Source: Amoebophrya sp. A120
Taxonomy: Eukaryota; Protista; Dinoflagellata
DNA length: 10,633 bases
Reading direction: 5' to 3'
NCBI GenBank assembly: GCA_905178155.1
Contig: CAJINV010000084.1
Span: 1 to 10,633 of the forward strand
Positions 1,046-10,633 of this stretch are shown here, one piece after another (position 1 is the first letter of the stretch; every line of letters starts with the position of its first letter). The notes under the pieces are model-generated. The model had not been told where the DNA came from, did not search any database, and saw nothing but the letters and a program-made list of their open reading frames with translations. Position numbers and translations under genes: made by a program.

Positions 1046-1601
1046 TTTGAATCACCGATGCGAAAACGGCAGCTAGAAGTTGTTCGAGTTTCATATGCGC
1101 ACTAGATAGTGCTGGTGCTCCTCTTATTGGAGGTTTTTTTGTTTTGCGTTGCCTCGAGTGACCGTATAACTTTTGCTATTGTTCCGTGGTCTTGGATCGA
1201 TATTGCGCGTATCAGTCGATGATCGGCTTCTACTTGTCTTCGTAAGAAGATCTCTATGGTCCGCTAGCTTTTGATTCCACTGCGGCCCGCCTTGTGTACC
1301 TGGTCTGAGTTTCTAAGGATGCCTATTGTTCCGCGGAGTAGCCAGAGTGAGACTTTCATTGGCATACCTTTTTCGGCCAAATGCGAATACGAAGCCCAAG
1401 ATCATAAATTGGAGAATGGGAAACGGAAAGTAAAAGTAAAACGAGTATTCTATGCGGCCTACTGCTAATCATCTATCTGCGAAGAAATCCGGGAAGTCAA
1501 TCTATACCCTCCAAGAAGTCTTTTTCCTCTCCTACACTTGAGAATTTGTATTGAGTTTCTTGTACTTACATCATAAATTCATGTTTCATTCCTACGACGC
1601 C

Positions 1602-3323
1602 ATGGCCTCCCTAACAAGTGAACTGCCGCCGGGCGAGGAGGTGGAGCTGCAGCAATCGGAAGAGCCGTCAGTCGAGGCCTGTTTGAAGACAAAGAAGTCG
1701 ACAGCAAAAGACGGAAGCGCTACTGCCAGCTCTCAAGCGGCCGACAAGAATCCGGCTGTTCCAACCGCAAGTGCCTCCAAAGTGGACAAGAAAGTCGTGA
1801 TTCTGCGCAAAGGGCTGTCCGGTGAGGAAAAAAAGTTCTGTATTGACACCGAAAAGGTTAAGTGTGTTGCAGACCTGGCCCAGTTATTTGTGCCAACCTT
1901 TTACACGAGCGAAAGCGACGAACTTTGCCCGCCGTCTTCGCGGCTGCTCTGGTTGGCAGGCGAAGACGAGCCTGCAGAGGAAGACAGAGACAGCGCAGAT
2001 GAAAATCATTCGCCACTTGAAGATGGTGATGGAGGCGAGCAGGGCGACCCGCCGCAGCTCCCGGCCTCGTCCGATGCTTCCGCTTTTTTTGCACATAGTG
2101 AGGAACTGGTGTTCAGTGCGGACGGAGAGGCTGTCTATCGCTTCATGGTCAAAGTCGAGGGGCCGTCCGGCAACCTGATGGAGGTCGAGGAAAGCAGCGA
2201 CGACGAGTATTCGGTGTCCGAACAGGAGGTACTACCGCGGCGCGTGCCACAGGAACCCGAGAAGATCAAAAGTATCGCCGCAGCGGAGAACTGGTTGTAT
2301 GACAGGTTTTACCGCTATTTTTTGCTCCCCGGGAACTCGGACGAATTCAAAGAAACGTATGGGCCGGAGCGGCTCGTGCGTCAGCGGGAGCGGACGTACT
2401 ACAACGACGCCGGAACTACAAGGAGGACCGACGTGGGTGCCGAAGTGCAAGCGCTGCTTCCACCGCAATATGCTGATCAGCCCGACTCGAGAAAGTTTCA
2501 GTATGTCGTCTACAGCAAGGCGAGCACGGAGTTCAAAATCCATAGCCGAGCATGGCCGTTGTTGGCCGTAGTCTTGCGCCTAAGTGACACAGAGTGGATC
2601 AAGCACGGATGGCTACCGCCCAGCGGAGTGAGTGGCTTCTCAGAAGTGCGGCAGCGGTACTGCGAAGGCATTCTCTTCGAGCTTGCAGACTCCCGCAGCG
2701 ATGCGAAGGAGGCGCTGCTCCGTTTTGTCATCGGCCCCGCACTGGATCAAGTCACTGACTGGGACAGGTTTCGTTTCGCGCAATTTGCAAATCGGACGGC
2801 AAGAAACTTCTGCGAGTTCCCTGTTTTTCCTCCTGAGGACCCGTCGCTACCGGTGGCGCGTCTTGTTTTCGAGCGTCTCGGGAATTCCCGCTCCCGCTTA
2901 GAAAAAGTGTATGAGGGTTGCAAGAGTGTCATCCGTCAGAGGTACAAGGAACGAAATTTCAAGGCCAACCCTAATTCCCGGTTTCCGCCACCTGATCCAT
3001 TACACCCGGAGCCGACTCTGTACCGTTTTCGAGACGAGCGGCCTTCCGTTAGGCGCACGTTTGTGCCGCATTGGATCGAGGTTCAGTTAAAAGAGCGCTT
3101 GAAATCTTGGCTGGATGAGGTGTTTGTCGATAAATTTGCAGCGGCTGGATTTCCTGACCTCGGGAAGGGCCTGCATGCGTTTTTAGACACTGTGCATGGC
3201 GAGGTGACGAGCGCAAGCCGGCAGGTTGGGAAATTACTGCAGAGCCTCACGGAACCAGAGGAAAATGATCTCTCGCGCAAAAGCGGAGATGAGGAGAACA
3301 GACAAGAAGCAGAGGATAAATAA
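1602..3323 (+). CDS. Hypothetical protein, tandem paralogue copy B (573 aa, apparently intronless)
   Basis: Long ORF. The ATG at 1602 sits in a gccATGg context just after an AT-rich intergenic stretch; an in-frame ATG at 1581 is an alternative. Acidic, low-complexity N-terminal part, then a region conserved with copy A. No family recognised. Confidence 0.8.
   Translation: MASLTSELPPGEEVELQQSEEPSVEACLKTKKSTAKDGSATASSQAADKNPAVPTASASKVDKKVVILRKGLSGEEKKFCIDTEKVKCVADLAQLFVPTFYTSESDELCPPSSRLLWLAGEDEPAEEDRDSADENHSPLEDGDGGEQGDPPQLPASSDASAFFAHSEELVFSADGEAVYRFMVKVEGPSGNLMEVEESSDDEYSVSEQEVLPRRVPQEPEKIKSIAAAENWLYDRFYRYFLLPGNSDEFKETYGPERLVRQRERTYYNDAGTTRRTDVGAEVQALLPPQYADQPDSRKFQYVVYSKASTEFKIHSRAWPLLAVVLRLSDTEWIKHGWLPPSGVSGFSEVRQRYCEGILFELADSRSDAKEALLRFVIGPALDQVTDWDRFRFAQFANRTARNFCEFPVFPPEDPSLPVARLVFERLGNSRSRLEKVYEGCKSVIRQRYKERNFKANPNSRFPPPDPLHPEPTLYRFRDERPSVRRTFVPHWIEVQLKERLKSWLDEVFVDKFAAAGFPDLGKGLHAFLDTVHGEVTSASRQVGKLLQSLTEPEENDLSRKSGDEENRQEAEDK
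2138..2327 (+). repeat. Direct repeat (tandem gene duplication), near-identical segment, copy 2
   Basis: Matches window 1-190. The first 95 nt are identical and the first mismatch is ggtacC versus ggtacT. Confidence 0.95.
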
Positions 3324-3921: not shown

Positions 3922-6816
3922 ATGAATCCGCAGACTGGTGCCGCCAAGCGGGTGGTCATTCAGAACGGCGGCGTGGAGAAGCAGGTTGAGATTGTTGCTG
4001 ACGGCTACCTGGACCGTGGGAACGTGGTGACCGGACAAATCGACCTGCTGATCGAAGAGTTGCAGGCCCTCAGCCTGCGGCTGACAAACGAAAACTTCAA
4101 AGACGAGATCGCGCAGCAGGCGGAACACACCAAACGCACGAAGCCGGCCAGTCGCGCGATTCTCGCGCACCAGCAGCGGCTGCAGATGGTGCAGGCCCTC
4201 CAGCGGAAAGTGAATGCTGCGTTTCCCTACGGGGGGAAGGAGCACCCGTACCCCGCAATCCTGAACTTCGAAGGGCCAGAGGAGGCCGGCGTGTCCAGAC
4301 TGCGGTCCGTCGGGGAGTTGCCGGCCATCACGACGCTTCTCGGCGAACACCTGCTGCAAAGCGGCCTGTTTGAGTCGTTCGAAACGTTTCGGCAAGAGGT
4401 GGAGCGCCAGGTTCACGACTCGTTTGCCGAGGACGGGGAAAACTACCGGCACAGCTTGGCTTTCGGTGCGGAGGAATCGGGAGAAAAGGATAAGAACGGC
4501 GACACTACTTACGAGGGAGCCGGTGGACAGCGGCAGCATGGAACACAAGAAGAGCAGGCACAGGAGAATTATAGGAATGACATTTACGGAAATTATGACG
4601 AAGATTACGACGAGGAAGAGGTCTGGAACGAAGATTCCACTACACGACAAAAACCGGCAGATCAAATCGATGAATTTCATTTTCTGTTCACCAACCCCTC
4701 GTCTTTCCAGCGGTTTTTTCAAGCGCACGAATCCGGACCGGGAGGCGGTTTTTTTGCGGGCTACGGCAATGCGGTCTTCGCGGTTGAGGAGGACGAGGGT
4801 GGCGACGCCGTGCGCTGCAGCAGCGTGGGCGACGTGATTTCCGCGTCCTGGGCCTTCGCACTGAAGACGCTGAAGGAGCTGTGCAAGTGCTGCGACCTCC
4901 ATCCTGATGTTTTGGATTCATCATCCTCGGCCGCGACAGGCAAAAATGACGAGCGACAGGAGCATTTATTCGGTTCGAAGAAGCTGGATCCATTGTTCCG
5001 GTATCTGGCCCACGTGAAGCACCAGTTTCAGACAAGCCTGAACATTTTGGGCGAAGTGGTCTGGAGCGAAAACTGCTGGGCCAGCGTAGCGCACGAGGGG
5101 CATCTGCTGTCCTGTTTCGAGTTCGAGCTGTTAGTCTGCAAGTACATGCAGATGCTGTTGTCTTGCTTTGCAAGAACATCAAACACGGGCTCTTCAACCT
5201 CTACTGCGTCTCTCAGCACACAGAGGCTCGAGGCGTTTCAGTTCGCGCAGAAAAGCTTCGCGCCCTTCCTGAAATGCCGCGGACAGGAGGTGGGGCGGTT
5301 GCTGACGCTTTCGACGCTGCAAGCGAATGGGGAGGTACTGTTGAAGAGAACACTTCAAAAGCGCCTCACTGTGCTGAGGAATTTGCTGAGAAAGGTTTTT
5401 TTCCTGACCACCGAAGTGCCGGCTTTGTCCCAAGAGCAGCTTGTGAACTATGATGAGATGGTGGAGCTTCATTATGACGTTTTGGTGAAATCGGGTATCA
5501 AAATTTCACCCGACAACACCTTCAAGCGCACGGCGCAGCCAGGCACCGGAAACACAGCGGCGCAACTAGGAAGACACAAAAATCGCAATGGTCGTGACCT
5601 CCAGAAGAGTTCATCTTCTTTCCTCGCCTCCGCTTCCGGTGGAGCAGACAACGGAACGGGCTCCGCACGCTCTCCCGGAGGTGGCCACGGCTACAACAGT
5701 CGTCAGGGGCATCAACCCGCCCAGGGAGAGATGTGGCCACCGAGTTTAAAGCGTAGGCGCAGCACGGACGAAGATGCTGTCGACCACCAGCACCACGCGT
5801 GGCCGTCGCAGGTGGAACCGAGGTCGCTCCTGCCACCGACCAGACCTATGTTTCCGGACATAACCCCCTTTCCGCTACTCGTGCCAGCCAGCGACGACTA
5901 CTACGACGTGTTGAACGTCAGAGACGAAGACGACGACGATGACACCGATAGCACATCGAGCACAGACCAACGGGCAGCGGACGACAAGAATGTCGCAGAG
6001 GAAGCCCTTTCTTCTCGCTGCGAAGTGAACCCGGAATGGATCGACATCGACTATGCCAGACATGTCGCTGCGGTCGAAAGGATTTTGACGGAAGATGAAC
6101 CGCTGGAGCAGGGTTGTGCCAATGGTGCGGCCACCGGTTCAGAAGTACTAGAGGAAAACTACAGTCCGCCGGGCTTGGGACCAGCACGTCATCAGCTCCG
6201 GCGTCCGTACAATTCCGCCTCCATGAATCTTCACGCCAGAGCCTTGCCAGCGTATCTGCAGGACGAAGAGGAAGATGCGTTTTTCACACGAAATCTGAAC
6301 CTGAGCGGAGTTGCGCCGCCTAGCGTCGAGCCGCCATACTGGGGGCCCGGTGGGCGTGCGTGCTTGGCTCATTACTGGGCAGCGCCGCCGTCTTCGCAAC
6401 ATAGAACGACCTCGGGCCTTGCGCTAGATTATGACGAGTATGATGAGCCAGCCGACGACGATAGTAACTCGAGCTTCAGCGTAGTTGACAGTTCGGCGGA
6501 GCGGTCTCCGCACGAGGGGGTCATGCAAGAAGACACCGCAACATCCTATTTGTCCAACACAGAGTTTTTCCCCCAGCAAGGTCTTGTTCCCGACGTGCAA
6601 CTGGCATCCTACTACCTCTGGGCGCGGGCGGACGCTGGGCTTGAGCGAGACCATTCCCCGCTCCGCAGTCCGCGTCGGAACCGCTCCGGATCGGTCTCCT
6701 CGGTATCCAGTGCGCCGTCTAGGGGAGTACGTCCGCGGAGAAATCGACGGAGAAGTCGGTCAGCGACGCGGCGAAGGCGAAGCGAGTCTGTTGAGTCCGT
6801 GGAGGGGAACAAGGAG
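3922..6816 (+). CDS. RMND5: RMND5-like gene, exon 1 (LisH, CTLH, start of CRA, long low-complexity insertion)
   Basis: 965 codons of the 3922..6894 ORF, ending at the donor GAG|GTGCCA. Sequence after 6817 becomes AT-rich and non-coding in character. Confidence 0.75.
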
Positions 6817-8444
6817 GTGCCACTATACTTTTCATGCAGTCGTGGAGGTCATCCTCATCTTCTCTGCAGCTGCACTTTATGTATGATTCTTTGAAGACAT
6901 ACACATAGTTATTGACTTGAACTCCTACAGTAGTTTTCTAGGGCTACTGCAATGAAAATATAAAACATCAGAGCAAAGAAAGTAAAATTGAAATCCACCA
7001 ATCGCAGGACGTCGAGATGGTAGATTCCCGCGACGCGAGCGCTGCGCGCAAATCCGCCGAGGTGATGCACGCGCAGGCGGAAGCGATTTCGTACCTCGTC
7101 CGGGAGGCCCACTACGAAAAAAAAGACAATGCGGCCAGAGCGGCGCGCCCGCGCGGGATTTTCCAAAGCTTCGGGGCGAATCTGAATCGGAACGCGCAGC
7201 TTTTTCCGCGGTACAATCCCCTGTCCGCAGCCTACGCCGGTTCCACTCTGGACGATCCCACGAGTCCGGGTGGTGACAAATCGTTCGGGAGAGCAGGAGG
7301 AGAAGATTTGTCAGAAGTTTTCACCACCGTTTCGCTGAAGCACCGAAGGGAACTGCGGCCCACCTCCCGGACGATGCAATCATGGCACAGAGGCCCCGGA
7401 GCAAGACGTAAAATTGCTTCTGACCATGCCGCAGCGGAGATGAATTATTCCAAAGGGAAGGGCCCGCTGAATAAAGCAGCGCACCATCCGAAAGCGGACG
7501 CAACATCAGTTCTGACACAGGAACAACAAGCCTTTTATGAGCCACCGGAGGAAGACGCGTTGTTGAACCTATGAAAGTGCACAACTCCCCCTCCGCCTCA
7601 TTTGTATAGCATGAACGGCAATACAAGCGTCAGCCAGAGTGCCGGTTTTGCATGACAGATTATTTACACTGGAGAGTAGTGCTATTTGGGCTGCCAGAAC
7701 TTGTCATGCAAACAGTGCCACATGACAGCGACTAGATTCGGGGTTTTGCATGACAAACGAGGGGGAGGGGGAGTTGTGCACTGCTATAGAACCCGAGCAG
7801 TCACTACCTGATGCTGGTGAGCAGACCCCATCTGCGGATGCAGCAGATGTCGCAGAAATCGCTGCTGTCGGTCATTCTGGACGCGGGCCAGCAGGCCCTG
7901 CCGAAGATTCTGGAGTACCACCAGTGGTGCGTGGACCAGGACAAGGGTCTCTCCACGGGCAACTGGTCGCTGACCACGGCCGTTGTCGGCGACACGCTGC
8001 CGGTCACCCTGGATTCGCCTCCGGAATTCGCCTACGCCAGCAACTTCGTTTGTCCGGTTATGCAAGAGAAAAACTGTGTAAGTGTAAATCTGTAATGCAG
8101 AACACGCAACAGATTTACACCTGTCATGCCAGACAGCCACGAAGTTCTCTTTTCATGTGTGTTTTCCCTTACAAGCCACGCATGACAGGTTTTCTCTGTC
8201 ATGTAGAGCAAATTTGTGATGCTGTCAGCCAATGATACTTACACTAACACAGTTTTTTTCTTGGATAGCGGTCAACCGTTCGCTGACCAGAACTCCCTAC
8301 CTCCTCGCGTGCGGCCACGTCCTGTCCAGGGAGTGCGTGGACCGTCTGAGCAGAAACGCGCGCGCCTCCTTCAAGTGCCCCTTCTGCCCGCGCCAGCAGA
8401 ACTCCGCGGCCGCCCTGCCCATCAAATTTGCGCAGAACTATTGA
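3922..8444 (+). CDS. RMND5: RMND5/GID2-like RING E3 ubiquitin ligase subunit of the CTLH/GID complex; spliced, join(3922..6816,7008..7565,7790..8054,8269..8444), about 1297 aa
   Basis: LisH-like motif ITTLLGEHLLQSGLFESFETFRQE (~4327-4398). CTLH/CRA-like motifs FEFELLVCKYMQML and EAFQFAQKSFAPF...EVGRLL. RMND5-type C-terminus SLLSVILDAG..ALP, LPVTLD....AY.S.FVCPV...PYLLACGHVLSRECVDRL....FKCPFCP.QQ....ALPIKF. Four ORF pieces join in frame through three introns. Family call is from motif recognition, not a database search; the paralogue MAEA/GID9 fits less well because the KCPxCP end is intact. Confidence 0.82.
6817..7007 (+). other. Canonical GT-AG spliceosomal intron (191 nt, phase 0)
   Basis: gag|GTGCCA...atcgcAG|gac. 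AT-rich with stop codons. Removal fuses the 3922 frame to the 7017..7574 frame (GNKE|DVEMVDSR). No terminal inverted repeat seen. Confidence 0.75.
7008..7565 (+). CDS. RMND5: RMND5-like gene, exon 2
   Basis: Frame of ORF 7017..7574, bounded by a CAG acceptor at 7007 and by element 1. The 3' boundary can slide within the GAACC repeat. Confidence 0.7.
7566..7793 (+). mobile_element. Inverted-repeat introner / MITE-like non-canonical intron, element 1 (224 nt removed)
   Basis: Direct repeat AACC at 7566-7569 and 7790-7793 (GAACC if the G is counted). TIRs 7570-7605 / 7753-7788 match at 31/36. Ends are TAT...ATA-G. Removing 7566..7789 gives LL|NPSSHYLMLVSRPH, in frame with the RMND5-like SLLSVILDAG segment. 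Confidence 0.88.
7790..8054 (+). CDS. RMND5: RMND5-like gene, exon 3 (end of CRA region and first RING Cys)
   Basis: Frame of ORF 7811..8095: SLLSVILDAGQQALPKIL...LPVTLDSPPEFAYASNFVCP. Confidence 0.8.
8055..8272 (+). mobile_element. Inverted-repeat introner / MITE-like non-canonical intron, element 2 (214 nt removed), inside the RING domain
   Basis: Direct repeat CGGT at 8055-8058 and 8269-8272. TIRs 8059-8087 / 8239-8267 match at 26/29. Ends are TAT...ATA-G. Removing 8055..8268 gives FVCPVNRSLTRTPYLLACGH, a RING/U-box-like C-x14-CGH spacing. Confidence 0.88.
8269..8444 (+). CDS. RMND5: RMND5-like gene, last exon (degenerate RING finger)
   Basis: PYLLACGHVLSRECVDRLSRNARASFKCPFCPRQQNSAAALPIKFAQNY, stop TGA at 8442-8444. 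Confidence 0.85.
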
Positions 8445-9165
8445 GAAGCCATTGATGCGCCGGGTAGGAGGAAGTGAGGACGAGATGACATGAGACTCTT
8501 CTCTACAGAGGCACTGCTGCCACACGATGTTTATTTTCCACCTGGATGAACAACAGTTCGTTCTTCTTTTCGACTCGAACATGAAGCACGGCCACAGACT
8601 AGTACACTCGGACTGCCTTCTTCGTGAAGTAAGTACAAATCTTCACAGTGCTCGATAAATTCGGCGCTCCTTTGGAATTCAACCTTTATCCTGGTTCTGA
8701 AAAGTTTCTGCGATCGTACATGAAGTTCATAGTTCAATCGCGAGCGCTTACACGCAAAATCGAAGAAGCCTACCGATACAAATGTGAAATGCTCGTATAA
8801 TTTTACCCGTCAGATCACTCTAGCGCTTTTCCTTTTTGAGAGTTTTAATGCGAAATTGAAGATCTTCCTCTTCATCTCTGAGAAAGGTTCACATTTGGCG
8901 GTATTTGCAAGCAGTCATCCAATTCTGCGTTCATCATGGCGGCTGTTTTTTTTTTGGATTTAGATAGTCAGTCTCAGTAAACATCATTTTTTTCGCTTGT
9001 CCGACTAAGGAAGAGACGCACTCAACGCAGTGACTTGGTTTCGCAGTTTATTCGTCCAAGTACTACTGTTGAAAATGGAGTTAGTAGTAGACCACAGTGT
9101 TTTTGCAAAACTTATGCAAAGTCTTACACATCAGCGTTTTTCTACTACCGCTAGATTCATGAGCC

Positions 9166-10633
9166 ATGTGGACTGACGTTCTGTCAGACGACTCCTCGTG
9201 GAAAAAGTGGCGCGCGAACTCGAAAGAACGAAAGCAGGAGCATACGACAAGAGACGGACATTCAACGAGCGAAGTGCGGCCGCAGGAACAGGAGCACGAT
9301 AATTTCAGCAAAAATTCGCATCCGGTTATTGCGGACGCCTCGGGCAGTGCCTCAGCGACAACTGCGACTCTCGGCGGCGACGAGTGTGGACAAGCTACTC
9401 TCGGACAAGAAGCAACATCCTCTTTTTCCATACCAGCTGGGCTGCCAGTACAAAGCCGGATGAACAACCTGGACCATTCGTCAAACATGACAGCAGATCA
9501 GGGCAACAAGAGCCAGCCTTCGTGCCGGGACACCAGCATGGCTTCTCCAGCGACGCCCACGCTGGGGTCTAGTGGCAAACAACCGAAGAACTACACCAGG
9601 GATCACCAAAACGTTGGCGCGAATGGTGCGGAGGAGAATCCTACTCTCCGCCAAGCTGGATACAGTGAGAGGCATCCGCAGACCGTTTCGTCTGCCTCCG
9701 CGTCTTCGTCAAGATCCGGCACCACTGTGGTCCCCCACACGGCATCTTCAAAAACCGCTCGTCCAGGCACTTATTGTTCCTACACCCGTCCCATGCCTGA
9801 TTCCGTGTGGAGCACCGCCTCCAGTTCAACGCGAGACTCCCGCGCCACGGTTTCGTCCAGCAGTAACGCTGGTGGCTGGGAGGAGGAGCGACCACATTGG
9901 CCACAAGAACCGGAAATACGAAATTGTGAGATGGATGATCATGAGAAGCCTCCTTTGGAGATGCAAATGCAATCGCAGCCGCCGGCTGGACCGACGACGC
10001 CGGACGAAGACTCCATGTGTTGCGAAGACGCAGAGGAGGTTTTGGAGGGAATAAACGACCAGCAGGCTGCGATTGTGGAGGACCTCGTAGACGTCGATTA
10101 TGACAACAAGGCGGTGATCGAGCGGCAACCTGTAGGAGTACAACAAACAGGTCACGATCGAAATACGGCTTGTTTAGACCCAGGAGCTCAACCTCGTGAG
10201 CAAATAGAAATCCGACATATAGCACCAGCTGCGACCACCGGGACATCAATAAGCTACGGAAGTACAATAAAGAGCGACGCGAGTATATCGTAAGGAAAAA
10301 TCCCCCCTCCCCATATCAAAACGATGTTTCTGATGCTGGATTTGTGTACACGAATCAGATTTGTCGTGCTGGCGAGGACTGCAGGCCCATATCAAGCCTC
10401 AGTAGACAGGTTTTGGCCTAGGCGATTAGCTAGACAGACGTCTACGCTGTAGGAGCAACAGCATGACAAACCGCCTATAGAATGTGGCGGAGCCTGTAGA
10501 TTTGCCTTCATGCAATACAGCGACGATTTGTGGTCTCAAATCAGCATCACAAATTTTCAGAAGTATCCCGGTTTGGTATGGGGAGGGGGGATTTTTCCTC
10601 ACAATAGAGTACTATTCGGGATGTGGATTCCAC
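9166..10633 (+). CDS. Hypothetical protein with a Ser/Thr/Gln-rich, probably disordered N-terminus; spliced join(9166..10281,10608..>10633), 3'-truncated
   Basis: The 375-codon ORF starts at gccATGt, and its apparent stop (TAA 10291-10293) lies inside the left TIR of element 3. After excision the frame continues KSDA|STIRDVDS, open to the window end (only 8 codons visible). No domain recognised. Confidence 0.65.
10282..10611 (+). mobile_element. Inverted-repeat introner / MITE-like non-canonical intron, element 3 (326 nt removed)
   Basis: Direct repeat AGTA at 10282-10285 and 10608-10611 (GAGTA if the G is counted). TIRs 10286-10320 / 10572-10606 match at 32/35 (tatcgtaaggaaaaatcccccctccccatatcaaa). 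Ends are TAT...ATA-G. It interrupts the 9166 ORF. Confidence 0.88.

Follow-up and report, generated by a model that had tools for sequence, protein, structure and literature searches.

A helically phased internal motif common to otherwise unrelated Amoebophrya introner families is a predicted binding site for one shared transposase

The window, i.e. the whole stretch of 10,633 nucleotides analysed here (contig CAJINV010000084.1 of Amoebophrya sp. A120), contains two forward-strand host genes interrupted by three introners with TAT...ATA termini, termed E1, E2 and E3. The first gene displays a Pfam zf-RING_UBOX match (6e-7) together with weak CTLH matches and, from this domain pair, presumably encodes an RMD5-like CTLH/RING protein. 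The genes, the elements and their 5-bp target-site duplications are arranged as follows.

3922..8444, + strand: host gene for a RING/CTLH-type protein, split by a GT-AG intron (~6817-7007), E1 and E2
7565..7569, + strand: left duplication of E1, GAACC (right copy 7789-7793)
7570..7788, unstranded: E1, TAT...ATA introner of 219 bp, terminal inverted repeat (TIR) ~37 bp
8054..8058, + strand: left duplication of E2, CCGGT (right copy GCGGT, 8268-8272, one mismatch)
8059..8267, unstranded: E2, TAT...ATA introner of 209 bp, TIR 29 bp
9163..10633, + strand: host gene split by E3, continuing beyond the window
10281..10285, + strand: left duplication of E3, GAGTA (right copy 10607-10611)
10286..10606, unstranded: E3, TAT...ATA introner of 321 bp, TIR 38 bp

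Removal of E1, E2 and E3 is displayed by joints of 224, 214 and 326 nt in 4/4 runs of one sample. The E1 joint skips 224 nt (219+5) with 5 ambiguous letters, the E2 joint runs from 8054 to 8269 with 4 ambiguous letters and retains the left C in the spliced form, and the E3 joint skips 326 nt (321+5), its right side comprising only 27 letters where the window ends. The runs are RNA by predicted type and the same contigs also skip the GT-AG intron, a single contig crossing all three joints of the first gene; an origin of the joints from an empty-site strain is formally possible. All three elements are highly repeated, with a summed depth of 13,600-67,000 compared with ~25 on unique DNA, and have 13, 26 and 96 long matches in a related assembly, where E1 belongs to family 5 (best copy 86% identical), E2 to family 4 (92%) and E3 to family 1 (92%). 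They display the features of MITEs, being short and abundant, with TIRs and target-site duplications and no coding capacity.

Within these elements a short word recurs in both directions, and the sites identified are listed below.

7618..7625, + strand: motif site GCAATACA in E1, 32 bp before 7650
7650..7657, + strand: motif site GCATGACA in E1
7702..7709, - strand: motif site GCATGACA, reverse, in E1
7720..7727, + strand: weak site ACATGACA in E1, PWM score under threshold
7748..7755, + strand: motif site GCATGACA in E1, outward-pointing, right end 33 bp away
8091..8098, - strand: motif site GCATTACA in E2, outward-pointing, left end 32 bp away
8122..8129, - strand: motif site GCATGACA, reverse, in E2, 31 bp from 8091
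8180..8187, + strand: motif site GCATGACA in E2
8197..8204, - strand: weak site ACATGACA, reverse, in E2
8215..8222, - strand: motif site GCATCACA in E2
10329..10336, - strand: motif site GCATCAGA in E3, outward-pointing, left end 43 bp away
10362..10369, - strand: motif site GCACGACA in E3, 33 bp from 10329
10461..10468, + strand: motif site GCATGACA in E3
10512: GCAATACA in E3, 32 bp before 10544
10544..10551, + strand: motif site GCATCACA in E3, outward-pointing, right end 55 bp away

The original prediction had placed GCATGACA at 7650, 7748, 8180 and 10461 and its reverse at 7702 and 8122, CATGACA at 7721, TGTCATG at 8197, the variant TGTCGTGC at 10362, a 14-nt direct repeat at 7644 and 7742 and one CATGACA outside the elements at 9486, and every one of these positions is correct. 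The repeated word is thus real; the motif is wider than had been claimed, with extra sites at 7618, 8091, 8215, 10329 and 10544, and the element DNA amounts to 749 bp (219+209+321) rather than about 770 bp. At 10362 most copies of E3 read GCAAGACA, and a 15-nt stretch at the E2 site 8215 recurs inverted at 10542-10556 of E3. CATGACA has 9 matches in the window compared with a shuffle mean of 1.24 (largest value 4 in 200 shuffles), while the sole canonical intron of the window carries one moderate PWM match, at 6830. Among words found in each of the three elements, the top 7-mer has 8 copies and the top 8-mer 6, against at most 5 and 3, respectively, in 3000 dinucleotide shuffles; post hoc choice of the word fails as an explanation because these shuffles never reach the observed copies.

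Enrichment and spacing were measured in 695,626 bp (696 kb) of one related assembly, at loci picked by the TIR of E3 from among the matches listed, so that family 1 is over-represented. At least 503 short elements in 13 families were called in this sample. The original prediction placed the element boundary at TAT...ATAG; the final letters are in fact ATA, the subsequent G being part of the 5-bp target-site duplication. In 420 elements the base after ATA is C in 145, G in 97, T in 91 and A in 87, and 488 strong TIR pairs chosen with no duplication required have a perfect 5-mer in 247 cases, a 4-mer in 6 and a 3-mer in 3. The 5-bp duplications are of uniform length and of any sequence. A TAT...ATAG model, in which the repeat would be 4 bp long and the element would supply its own AG acceptor, is rejected, there being no G bias and an even spread of mismatches over the five positions.

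The families have little in common apart from the motif. Their masked consensuses display only one TIR match between families (6/8), and the remaining common features are TAT and a short A-tract. A start of TAT, 7 variable nt and at least 3 A in the inverted repeat is found in E2, E3 and 9/13 family consensuses, and E1 (family 5) and families 6-8 fit it loosely or not at all. As predicted, one motif is nevertheless common to these otherwise unrelated families: CATGACA is the top 7-mer by number of families (13/13), and the wide motif GCA(T/A)(G/T/C)ACARRT, with an information content of ~14 bits, is found in 480/480 family members, a site being also present in 20/23 remaining elements. The proposed enrichment check reveals a strong excess over the comparison classes, which are long ORFs and remaining DNA, canonical introns not forming a separate class. 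GCATGACA occurs at 5.12/kb in elements and 0.193/kb in other DNA, a 26-fold difference, and GCAWBACAR at 13.35/kb in elements, 0.19/kb in long ORFs and 0.51/kb in the rest. Core positions of the motif change at a rate of 0.040 (567/14093) compared with 0.089 (4866/54446) at other interior positions, while position 5 drifts freely (0.10). In two TAT...ATA elements that lack the motif, 8-mers of their own, CGATAACA and CGTAAACA, recur in both directions, as would be expected of sibling transposase specificities.

The spacing of the sites follows whole turns of the helix. Same-direction pairs concentrate at 31-33 bp (18/70, in 11/13 families; null maximum 10 in 5000), and the spacers are unrelated in sequence, only their length being kept. 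Similarly, the first outward-pointing site is mostly positioned 32-33, 41-44 or 52-55 bp from the element end, with a period of ~10.5; in family 0 copies it moves between 33 and 40-42 bp. The site-to-end phase gives R(10.5)=0.79 (n=19), which is reached by 0/5000 nulls, and one end per family gives R=0.74-0.77 (n=12; p 0.0004-0.0008). Remote ancestry is probably common to the families, so that the p-values given here overstate independence. Divergent pairs are also phased (R=0.69 at period 10.4, n=30), whereas same-direction spacings above 33 bp display no phase (p=0.36) and convergent pairs no clear one (p=0.07). The sites spread over the whole interior and are not clustered at the ends, which counts against a transposase site. 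The phased geometry fits a protein-binding site on DNA, which the original prediction had offered beside an RNA signal for excision.

The orientation of the elements is free, with 83 same and 82 opposite among neighbours. Strand and exon calls were made with a codon model, a stop-based strand call being mostly ambiguous; relative to the coding strand, 16 of 36 confidently exonic cases have one orientation and 20 the other. All 36, scored in motif-bearing families only, keep frame once the element plus 5 is removed; a simple open-frame test does not discriminate (330 vs 312-329 of 376). In family 3 all 6 sites lie on a single strand, yet its members are found both ways in exons (2 vs 3 and, in a separate count, 11 vs 8). 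Most probably the signal is recognised in double-stranded DNA, because insertion into exons occurs both ways, one family has its sites on a single strand and mirror sites lack covariation (22 observed vs 21.8 expected, for example, at positions 4-5).

We favour, with a probability of about 0.6, the reading that one shared transposase, or a DNA-binding partner of it, binds the motif repeats on double-stranded DNA. A single enzyme would in this way move numerous TAT...ATA introner families that are non-autonomous and unrelated to each other. Several DNA-binding domains, aligned along one face of the helix, would contact site pairs separated by three turns, with three, four or five turns between the element end and the first site. 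These domains would hold a catalytic domain on the TAT end, and this end would be cut and then inserted with a 5-bp stagger. The likeliest catalyst would be an integrase-like (Ginger/TDD-like) enzyme, judged by the duplication length and by the published A120 family 38, which Gozashti et al. 2025 (PMC12130899) list as Ginger with a 5-bp TSD and TA/TA termini and without homology to known Gingers. Removal from the mRNA would follow a separate code, in which a family-specific terminal stem brings the two duplications together. A fuller scheme we consider unlikely. It has two codes, a shared phased array in the DNA, recognised by a single protein, and a terminal stem, specific to each family, recognised at the RNA level; the protein, perhaps a domesticated transposase, would both disperse the elements and mark them for precise, U1-independent excision.

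Against the favoured reading, Farhat et al. 2021 (PMC7789003) found no transposase in A120. In the related assembly none was detected by Pfam in 76 long ORFs, 8 further ORFs and 33 ORFs of mid-length elements, nor by tblastn in the loci, and the 696 kb hold no autonomous element. There is no stand-alone Copia-type integrase below 948 aa among the 308 candidates listed, and the Copia fragment in L022 has an LTR of the ordinary kind, starting with TG. A 5,961-bp TIR pair in L083, probably mispaired, contains no transposase-like ORF by eye. Scans of viral contigs gave 17 chance matches without an element in one and 0 matches in another.

As the main alternative, a host protein, possibly domesticated, that binds DNA or chromatin at the phased sites could mark the element for co-transcriptional, U1-independent excision, so that only motif-bearing families can survive in exons. 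Phasing and orientation independence suit any double-stranded-DNA binder, the sites extend through the element interior, the 36/36 frame-keeping exonic cases all lie in the motif-bearing families that were scored, and the excerpts of PMC7789003 describe A120 as having no detected U1 snRNA or transposase. The codon model does not place three elements, whose motif differs or is absent, confidently in exons, and the flanks of motif-bearing elements are mostly GC-rich and exon-like, observations that fit an excision role equally well. L066:16097-17290, considered as a motif-less exonic intron, was not confirmed by the codon model. We nevertheless hold the host mark to be doubtful: phase to the exact DNA end matters more for a cutting enzyme than for a splicing mark, and the 13 families would otherwise offer a transposase only TAT and the A-tract for recognition. 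Moreover, motif divergence grows with copy age like that of the interior (rho 0.47, ~threefold), and elements with low-GC flanks, a small sample of 16, are barely more decayed (0.076 vs 0.069). Selection for transposition and host selection could not be split as sources of motif conservation.

An RNA signal could be a protein site in single-stranded RNA or stems that pair within the intron hairpin. This explanation draws on the strong folding of E1, E2 and E3 (z ~-8), where inverted motif copies are paired in the predicted structures, on the pairing of 76% of motif bases compared with 62% of other interior bases and on 133/331 sites that pair with another site. The behaviour of family 3, the orientation freedom and the lack of covariation at positions 4-5 speak against it, with an exception at family 4 positions 9-10 (19 vs 12.2), and Rfam gives 0 matches at gathering score in 7400-10633; a strand-specific RNA signal is largely refuted and the explanation as a whole is highly improbable. 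Hardly better placed are relics of one ancestral terminal module, spread by internal duplication and inversion and without present function. Such relics would account for the extension of the TIRs by mirror-placed sites, seen in several families, and for the short modules common to E1, E2 and E3, but the core changes at under half the interior rate while position 5 drifts, and spacer length is maintained where spacer sequence is not.

Two open questions are named in PMC7789003: by what means introners could spread in Amoebophrya to tens of thousands of copies when no transposase is detected, and by what route transcripts lose them in the absence of U1. One motif across families would reduce many sequence-defined families to a single system, and the site with its spacing and phase offers a precise bait with which to find the protein and to trace the autonomous element. 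Separation of the transposition and splicing signals would allow each to be mutated alone. If a domesticated transposase does both spread and mark the elements, splicing would be instructed by DNA.

In Mu and Tn7 more than one transposase site lies at a fixed distance from each terminus, and the duplication is 5 bp; the elements described here likewise have multiple sites at set distances from the end and the same duplication length. Mu and Tn7 are bacterial, with long sites that include the terminus and no intron behaviour. CACTA/EnSpm elements have CACTA/G termini and a 3-bp duplication, so that the TAT termini and 5-bp duplication reject membership of this group. Membership of hAT fails similarly, the duplication being 8 bp in Hermes (PMC10368747); the repeats present in the elements are putative transposase sites. 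As precedents, subterminal repeats are bound by the BED domains of Hermes (PMC10368747), and subterminal motifs of the pogo-like Emigrant MITE by Lemi1 (PMC1636448). In each system a short motif recurs within the TIRs in either orientation, and transposase binding to it is proposed or shown. In contrast with Hermes, with its 8-bp duplications and asymmetric 4-bp repeats, the elements here have 5-bp duplications and a helically phased ~14-bit site and are spliced, and unlike both systems the site is common to families with different TIRs. Ginger2/TDD elements (PMC2836005) have TIRs and an integrase-type 5-bp duplication, as in TDD-4 and TDD-5; Ginger termini are TGTNR instead of TAT, and the core TIRs are shorter here, where no transposase is seen. 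The excerpted accounts of A120 introners (PMC7789003, PMC12130899) describe terminal motifs only and treat the families as separate; an internal motif common to the families is absent from these excerpts, as are its spacing and phase, and they give 3-5-nt direct repeats at exon borders where the duplication is uniformly 5 bp here. The same excerpts describe non-canonical splicing and a hairpin-forming inverted repeat of TAT, 7 variable nt and an A-run, as found here, and the family lengths observed (~107, 150, 209, 260, 278, 305, 320 bp) lie near rows of the Gozashti dataset (PMC12130899).

The word CATGACA, with its reverse TGTCATG, occurs nine times in the window against a shuffle mean of 1.24, and eight of these copies lie inside three inverted-repeat elements that together span 749 bp.

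Element 1 (E1), 7570-7788, begins TAT, ends ATA
Element 2 (E2), 8059-8267, begins TAT, ends ATA
Element 3 (E3), 10286-10606, begins TAT, ends ATA

As a 7-mer common to E1, E2 and E3 its eight copies exceed the maximum of five reached by any word in 3000 shuffles of the elements. The near confinement of the motif to the elements, as the original prediction had it, holds, and all coordinates then listed proved correct on re-check. The arms of E1-E3 measure 29-38 bp, and the terminal pattern is that of the A120 introners in the excerpts of Farhat et al. (PMC7789003). Summed contig depth in a DNA-like run reaches 13,600-67,000 over E1-E3 versus ~25 on unique DNA, and the elements are therefore high-copy. 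Skips of 224, 214 and 326 nt, corresponding to each element plus 5 nt, were found in four runs of one sample, whose RNA nature is the tool's guess. E1 and E2 split a CTLH/RING gene, and a single contig crosses a GT-AG intron, E1 and E2, with no further exon letter differences listed. Together with the family lengths, these features suggest an A120-type source organism. The E2 duplication (8054-8058/8268-8272) differs at one base between its two copies, and it is the left-hand base that survives splicing. E2-like copies can therefore be used to locate the cut; one of the allowed cuts would give E2 CG..AG ends.

A scan of the metagenome collection with the E3 terminal repeat as query gave at least 128 separate loci, every one of them in assembly JACKZZ01, and the sample comprised 695,626 unique bases in 109 contigs. 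When no duplication was required, 488 strong TAT/ATA arm pairs were obtained, of which 247 are flanked by a perfect 5-bp direct repeat, 56 by a one-mismatch 5-mer, 9 by a 3- or 4-mer and 176 by none, many of the last probably being mispaired ends. Elements with a duplication match of at least 4/5 number 524 (438 perfect). The predicted TAT...ATAG boundary has to be amended: the base 3' of ATA displays no G preference, and the boundary is thus TAT...ATA plus a 5-bp duplication of any sequence. The motif set comprised 503 elements of up to 420 bp, most of the 21 longer calls being handled separately. Thirteen families of 3-126 members include 480 elements, E1 belonging to family 5, E2 to family 4 and E3 to family 1.

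Enrichment of the motif was confirmed in the JACKZZ01 loci, with 659 copies of GCATGACA in 128.7 kb of elements versus 100 in 517.9 kb of other DNA (26-fold), part of the outside matches falling in elements missed by the caller; GCATCACA, GCATTACA, GCAAGACA and GCAATACA are likewise enriched. The proposal that one motif spans unrelated TIR families is also upheld, as CATGACA ranks first among 7-mers by the number of families having it in at least 40% of members (13/13). The motif matrix, GCA(T/A)(G/T/C)ACA(A/G)(A/G)T, gives a mean of 2-7.5 sites per element, with at least one in 480/480 family members and 20/23 other elements. Once the motif is masked, the only sequence shared among family consensuses is one TIR match, which links family 6 with family 8. 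Change on near-terminal branches is 0.040 in the motif core, 0.089 in the other interior and 0.10 at motif position 5.

The sites are also regularly arranged. With every family site counted once, 18 of 70 same-direction pairs, in 11/13 families, lie 31-33 bp apart (at most 10 in any of 5000 null placements). The distance from the element end to the first outward-pointing site is 32-33 (6), 41-44 (9), 52-55 (3) or 60 (1) bp, with a phase at 10.5 bp of R=0.79, which persists with one end per family (p 0.0004-0.0008, n=12), these geometry p-values being optimistic because the families may have remote common ancestry. Among divergent pairs the preferred distances are 36-37, 46-50, 58 and 68-70 bp (R=0.69). 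Longer same-direction spacings and convergent pairs have no significant phase at 10.5 bp. The ~20-bp spacers differ in sequence from family to family. Window sites fit the rule, with pairs at 32, 31, 33 and 32 bp and ends at 33, 32, 43 and 55 bp. The motif is a real, general and structured feature.

The original prediction left the motif as either a protein site or an RNA signal. The elements fold well and inverted motif copies are paired in predicted structures. Orientation is free, with same-family neighbours lying 83 the same way versus 82 opposite and the 36 confidently exonic cases divided 16 versus 20; the frame is kept in 36/36 of the latter on removal of the element plus 5. Family 3 has six sites, all on one strand, yet is inserted both ways, and mirror motif sites lack covariation at positions 4-5. 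These results make double-stranded DNA the most probable form in which the motif is recognised, which favours the protein site over the RNA signal. Terminal arm positions, by contrast, covary in families 0 and 2-4, a pattern that subfamily structure could also cause, and the family-specific arms are more probable than the motif as an RNA signal.

Most arms consist of TAT-N7-A-tract followed by a family-specific 6-mer twice in tandem (consensus positions 16-27). In family 1, agreement between the arms of one copy at positions 4-7 is below what column frequencies predict (0.38 vs 0.50 expected at position 4), possibly an orientation artefact.

The motif array probably represents candidate sites of one shared transposase (probability about 0.6). 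Since the families share little beyond TAT, the A-tract and the array, such an enzyme would have little else to recognise, and the phase to the exact element end suits an enzyme cutting there. An integrase-like enzyme would be consistent with the 5-bp duplication (cf. PMC2836005), and Gozashti et al. (PMC12130899) class A120 family 38 as Ginger, its TSD being 5 bp and its termini TA/TA. Extracts from the literature offer precedents in Emigrant/Lemi1 for a transposase at subterminal motifs (PMC1636448) and in Hermes for subterminal repeats (PMC10368747). The transposase-bearing motif elements sought by the original prediction did not appear in the JACKZZ01 loci: 76 long ORFs, 33 ORFs of mid-length elements and tblastn of the loci yielded no transposase, and a separate search for stand-alone Copia-type integrases found none among 308 candidates. 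A host factor that licenses excision by binding the motif, a less probable alternative, draws on this result and on three elements with another motif or none (at loci L056 and L066, and a third motif-less one), which are not confidently in exons. The decay patterns of the motif do not separate the host factor from the shared transposase.

The L056:6596-7116 and L066:16097-17290 elements are TAT...ATA elements with 5-bp duplications, longer than the main set and each single copy in the sample; the main motif is absent and they carry their own repeated 8-mers, CGATAACA and CGTAAAC[A], in both directions (12 and 8 sites, among them sites at 15 and 21 bp inside the element termini). The canonical intron of the window holds a 17-nt imperfect inverted repeat (6824-6840/6946-6962) with TAT start, ATA end, no duplication and one moderate motif match at 6830, perhaps a decayed element. 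Nested insertions occur in the introners L023:632-1465, L085:12342-12798 and L050:765-1461, of which L023 and L085 terminate in (CAT)n-like tails and have a short box in common, possibly a retroposon. L022:1800-4546 is a partial Copia-type retrotransposon (RVT_2), and among its relatives is a protein bearing the name of Amoebophrya sp. A120 (P0030). Two paralogous genes, both intronless, lie in tandem at 1-1045 and 1581-3323 of the window; the latter gave no match in Pfam.

The elements themselves are already known, being of the A120 introner kind. An internal motif common to families is not described in the portions seen of PMC7789003, PMC12130899, PMC9860276 and PMC11282704, nor elsewhere in the literature searched, on which Roy et al. 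2023, supplementary figures and theses may bear. The internal motif is similar in kind to the subterminal repeats of transposons, as a variant that is new in the literature searched.
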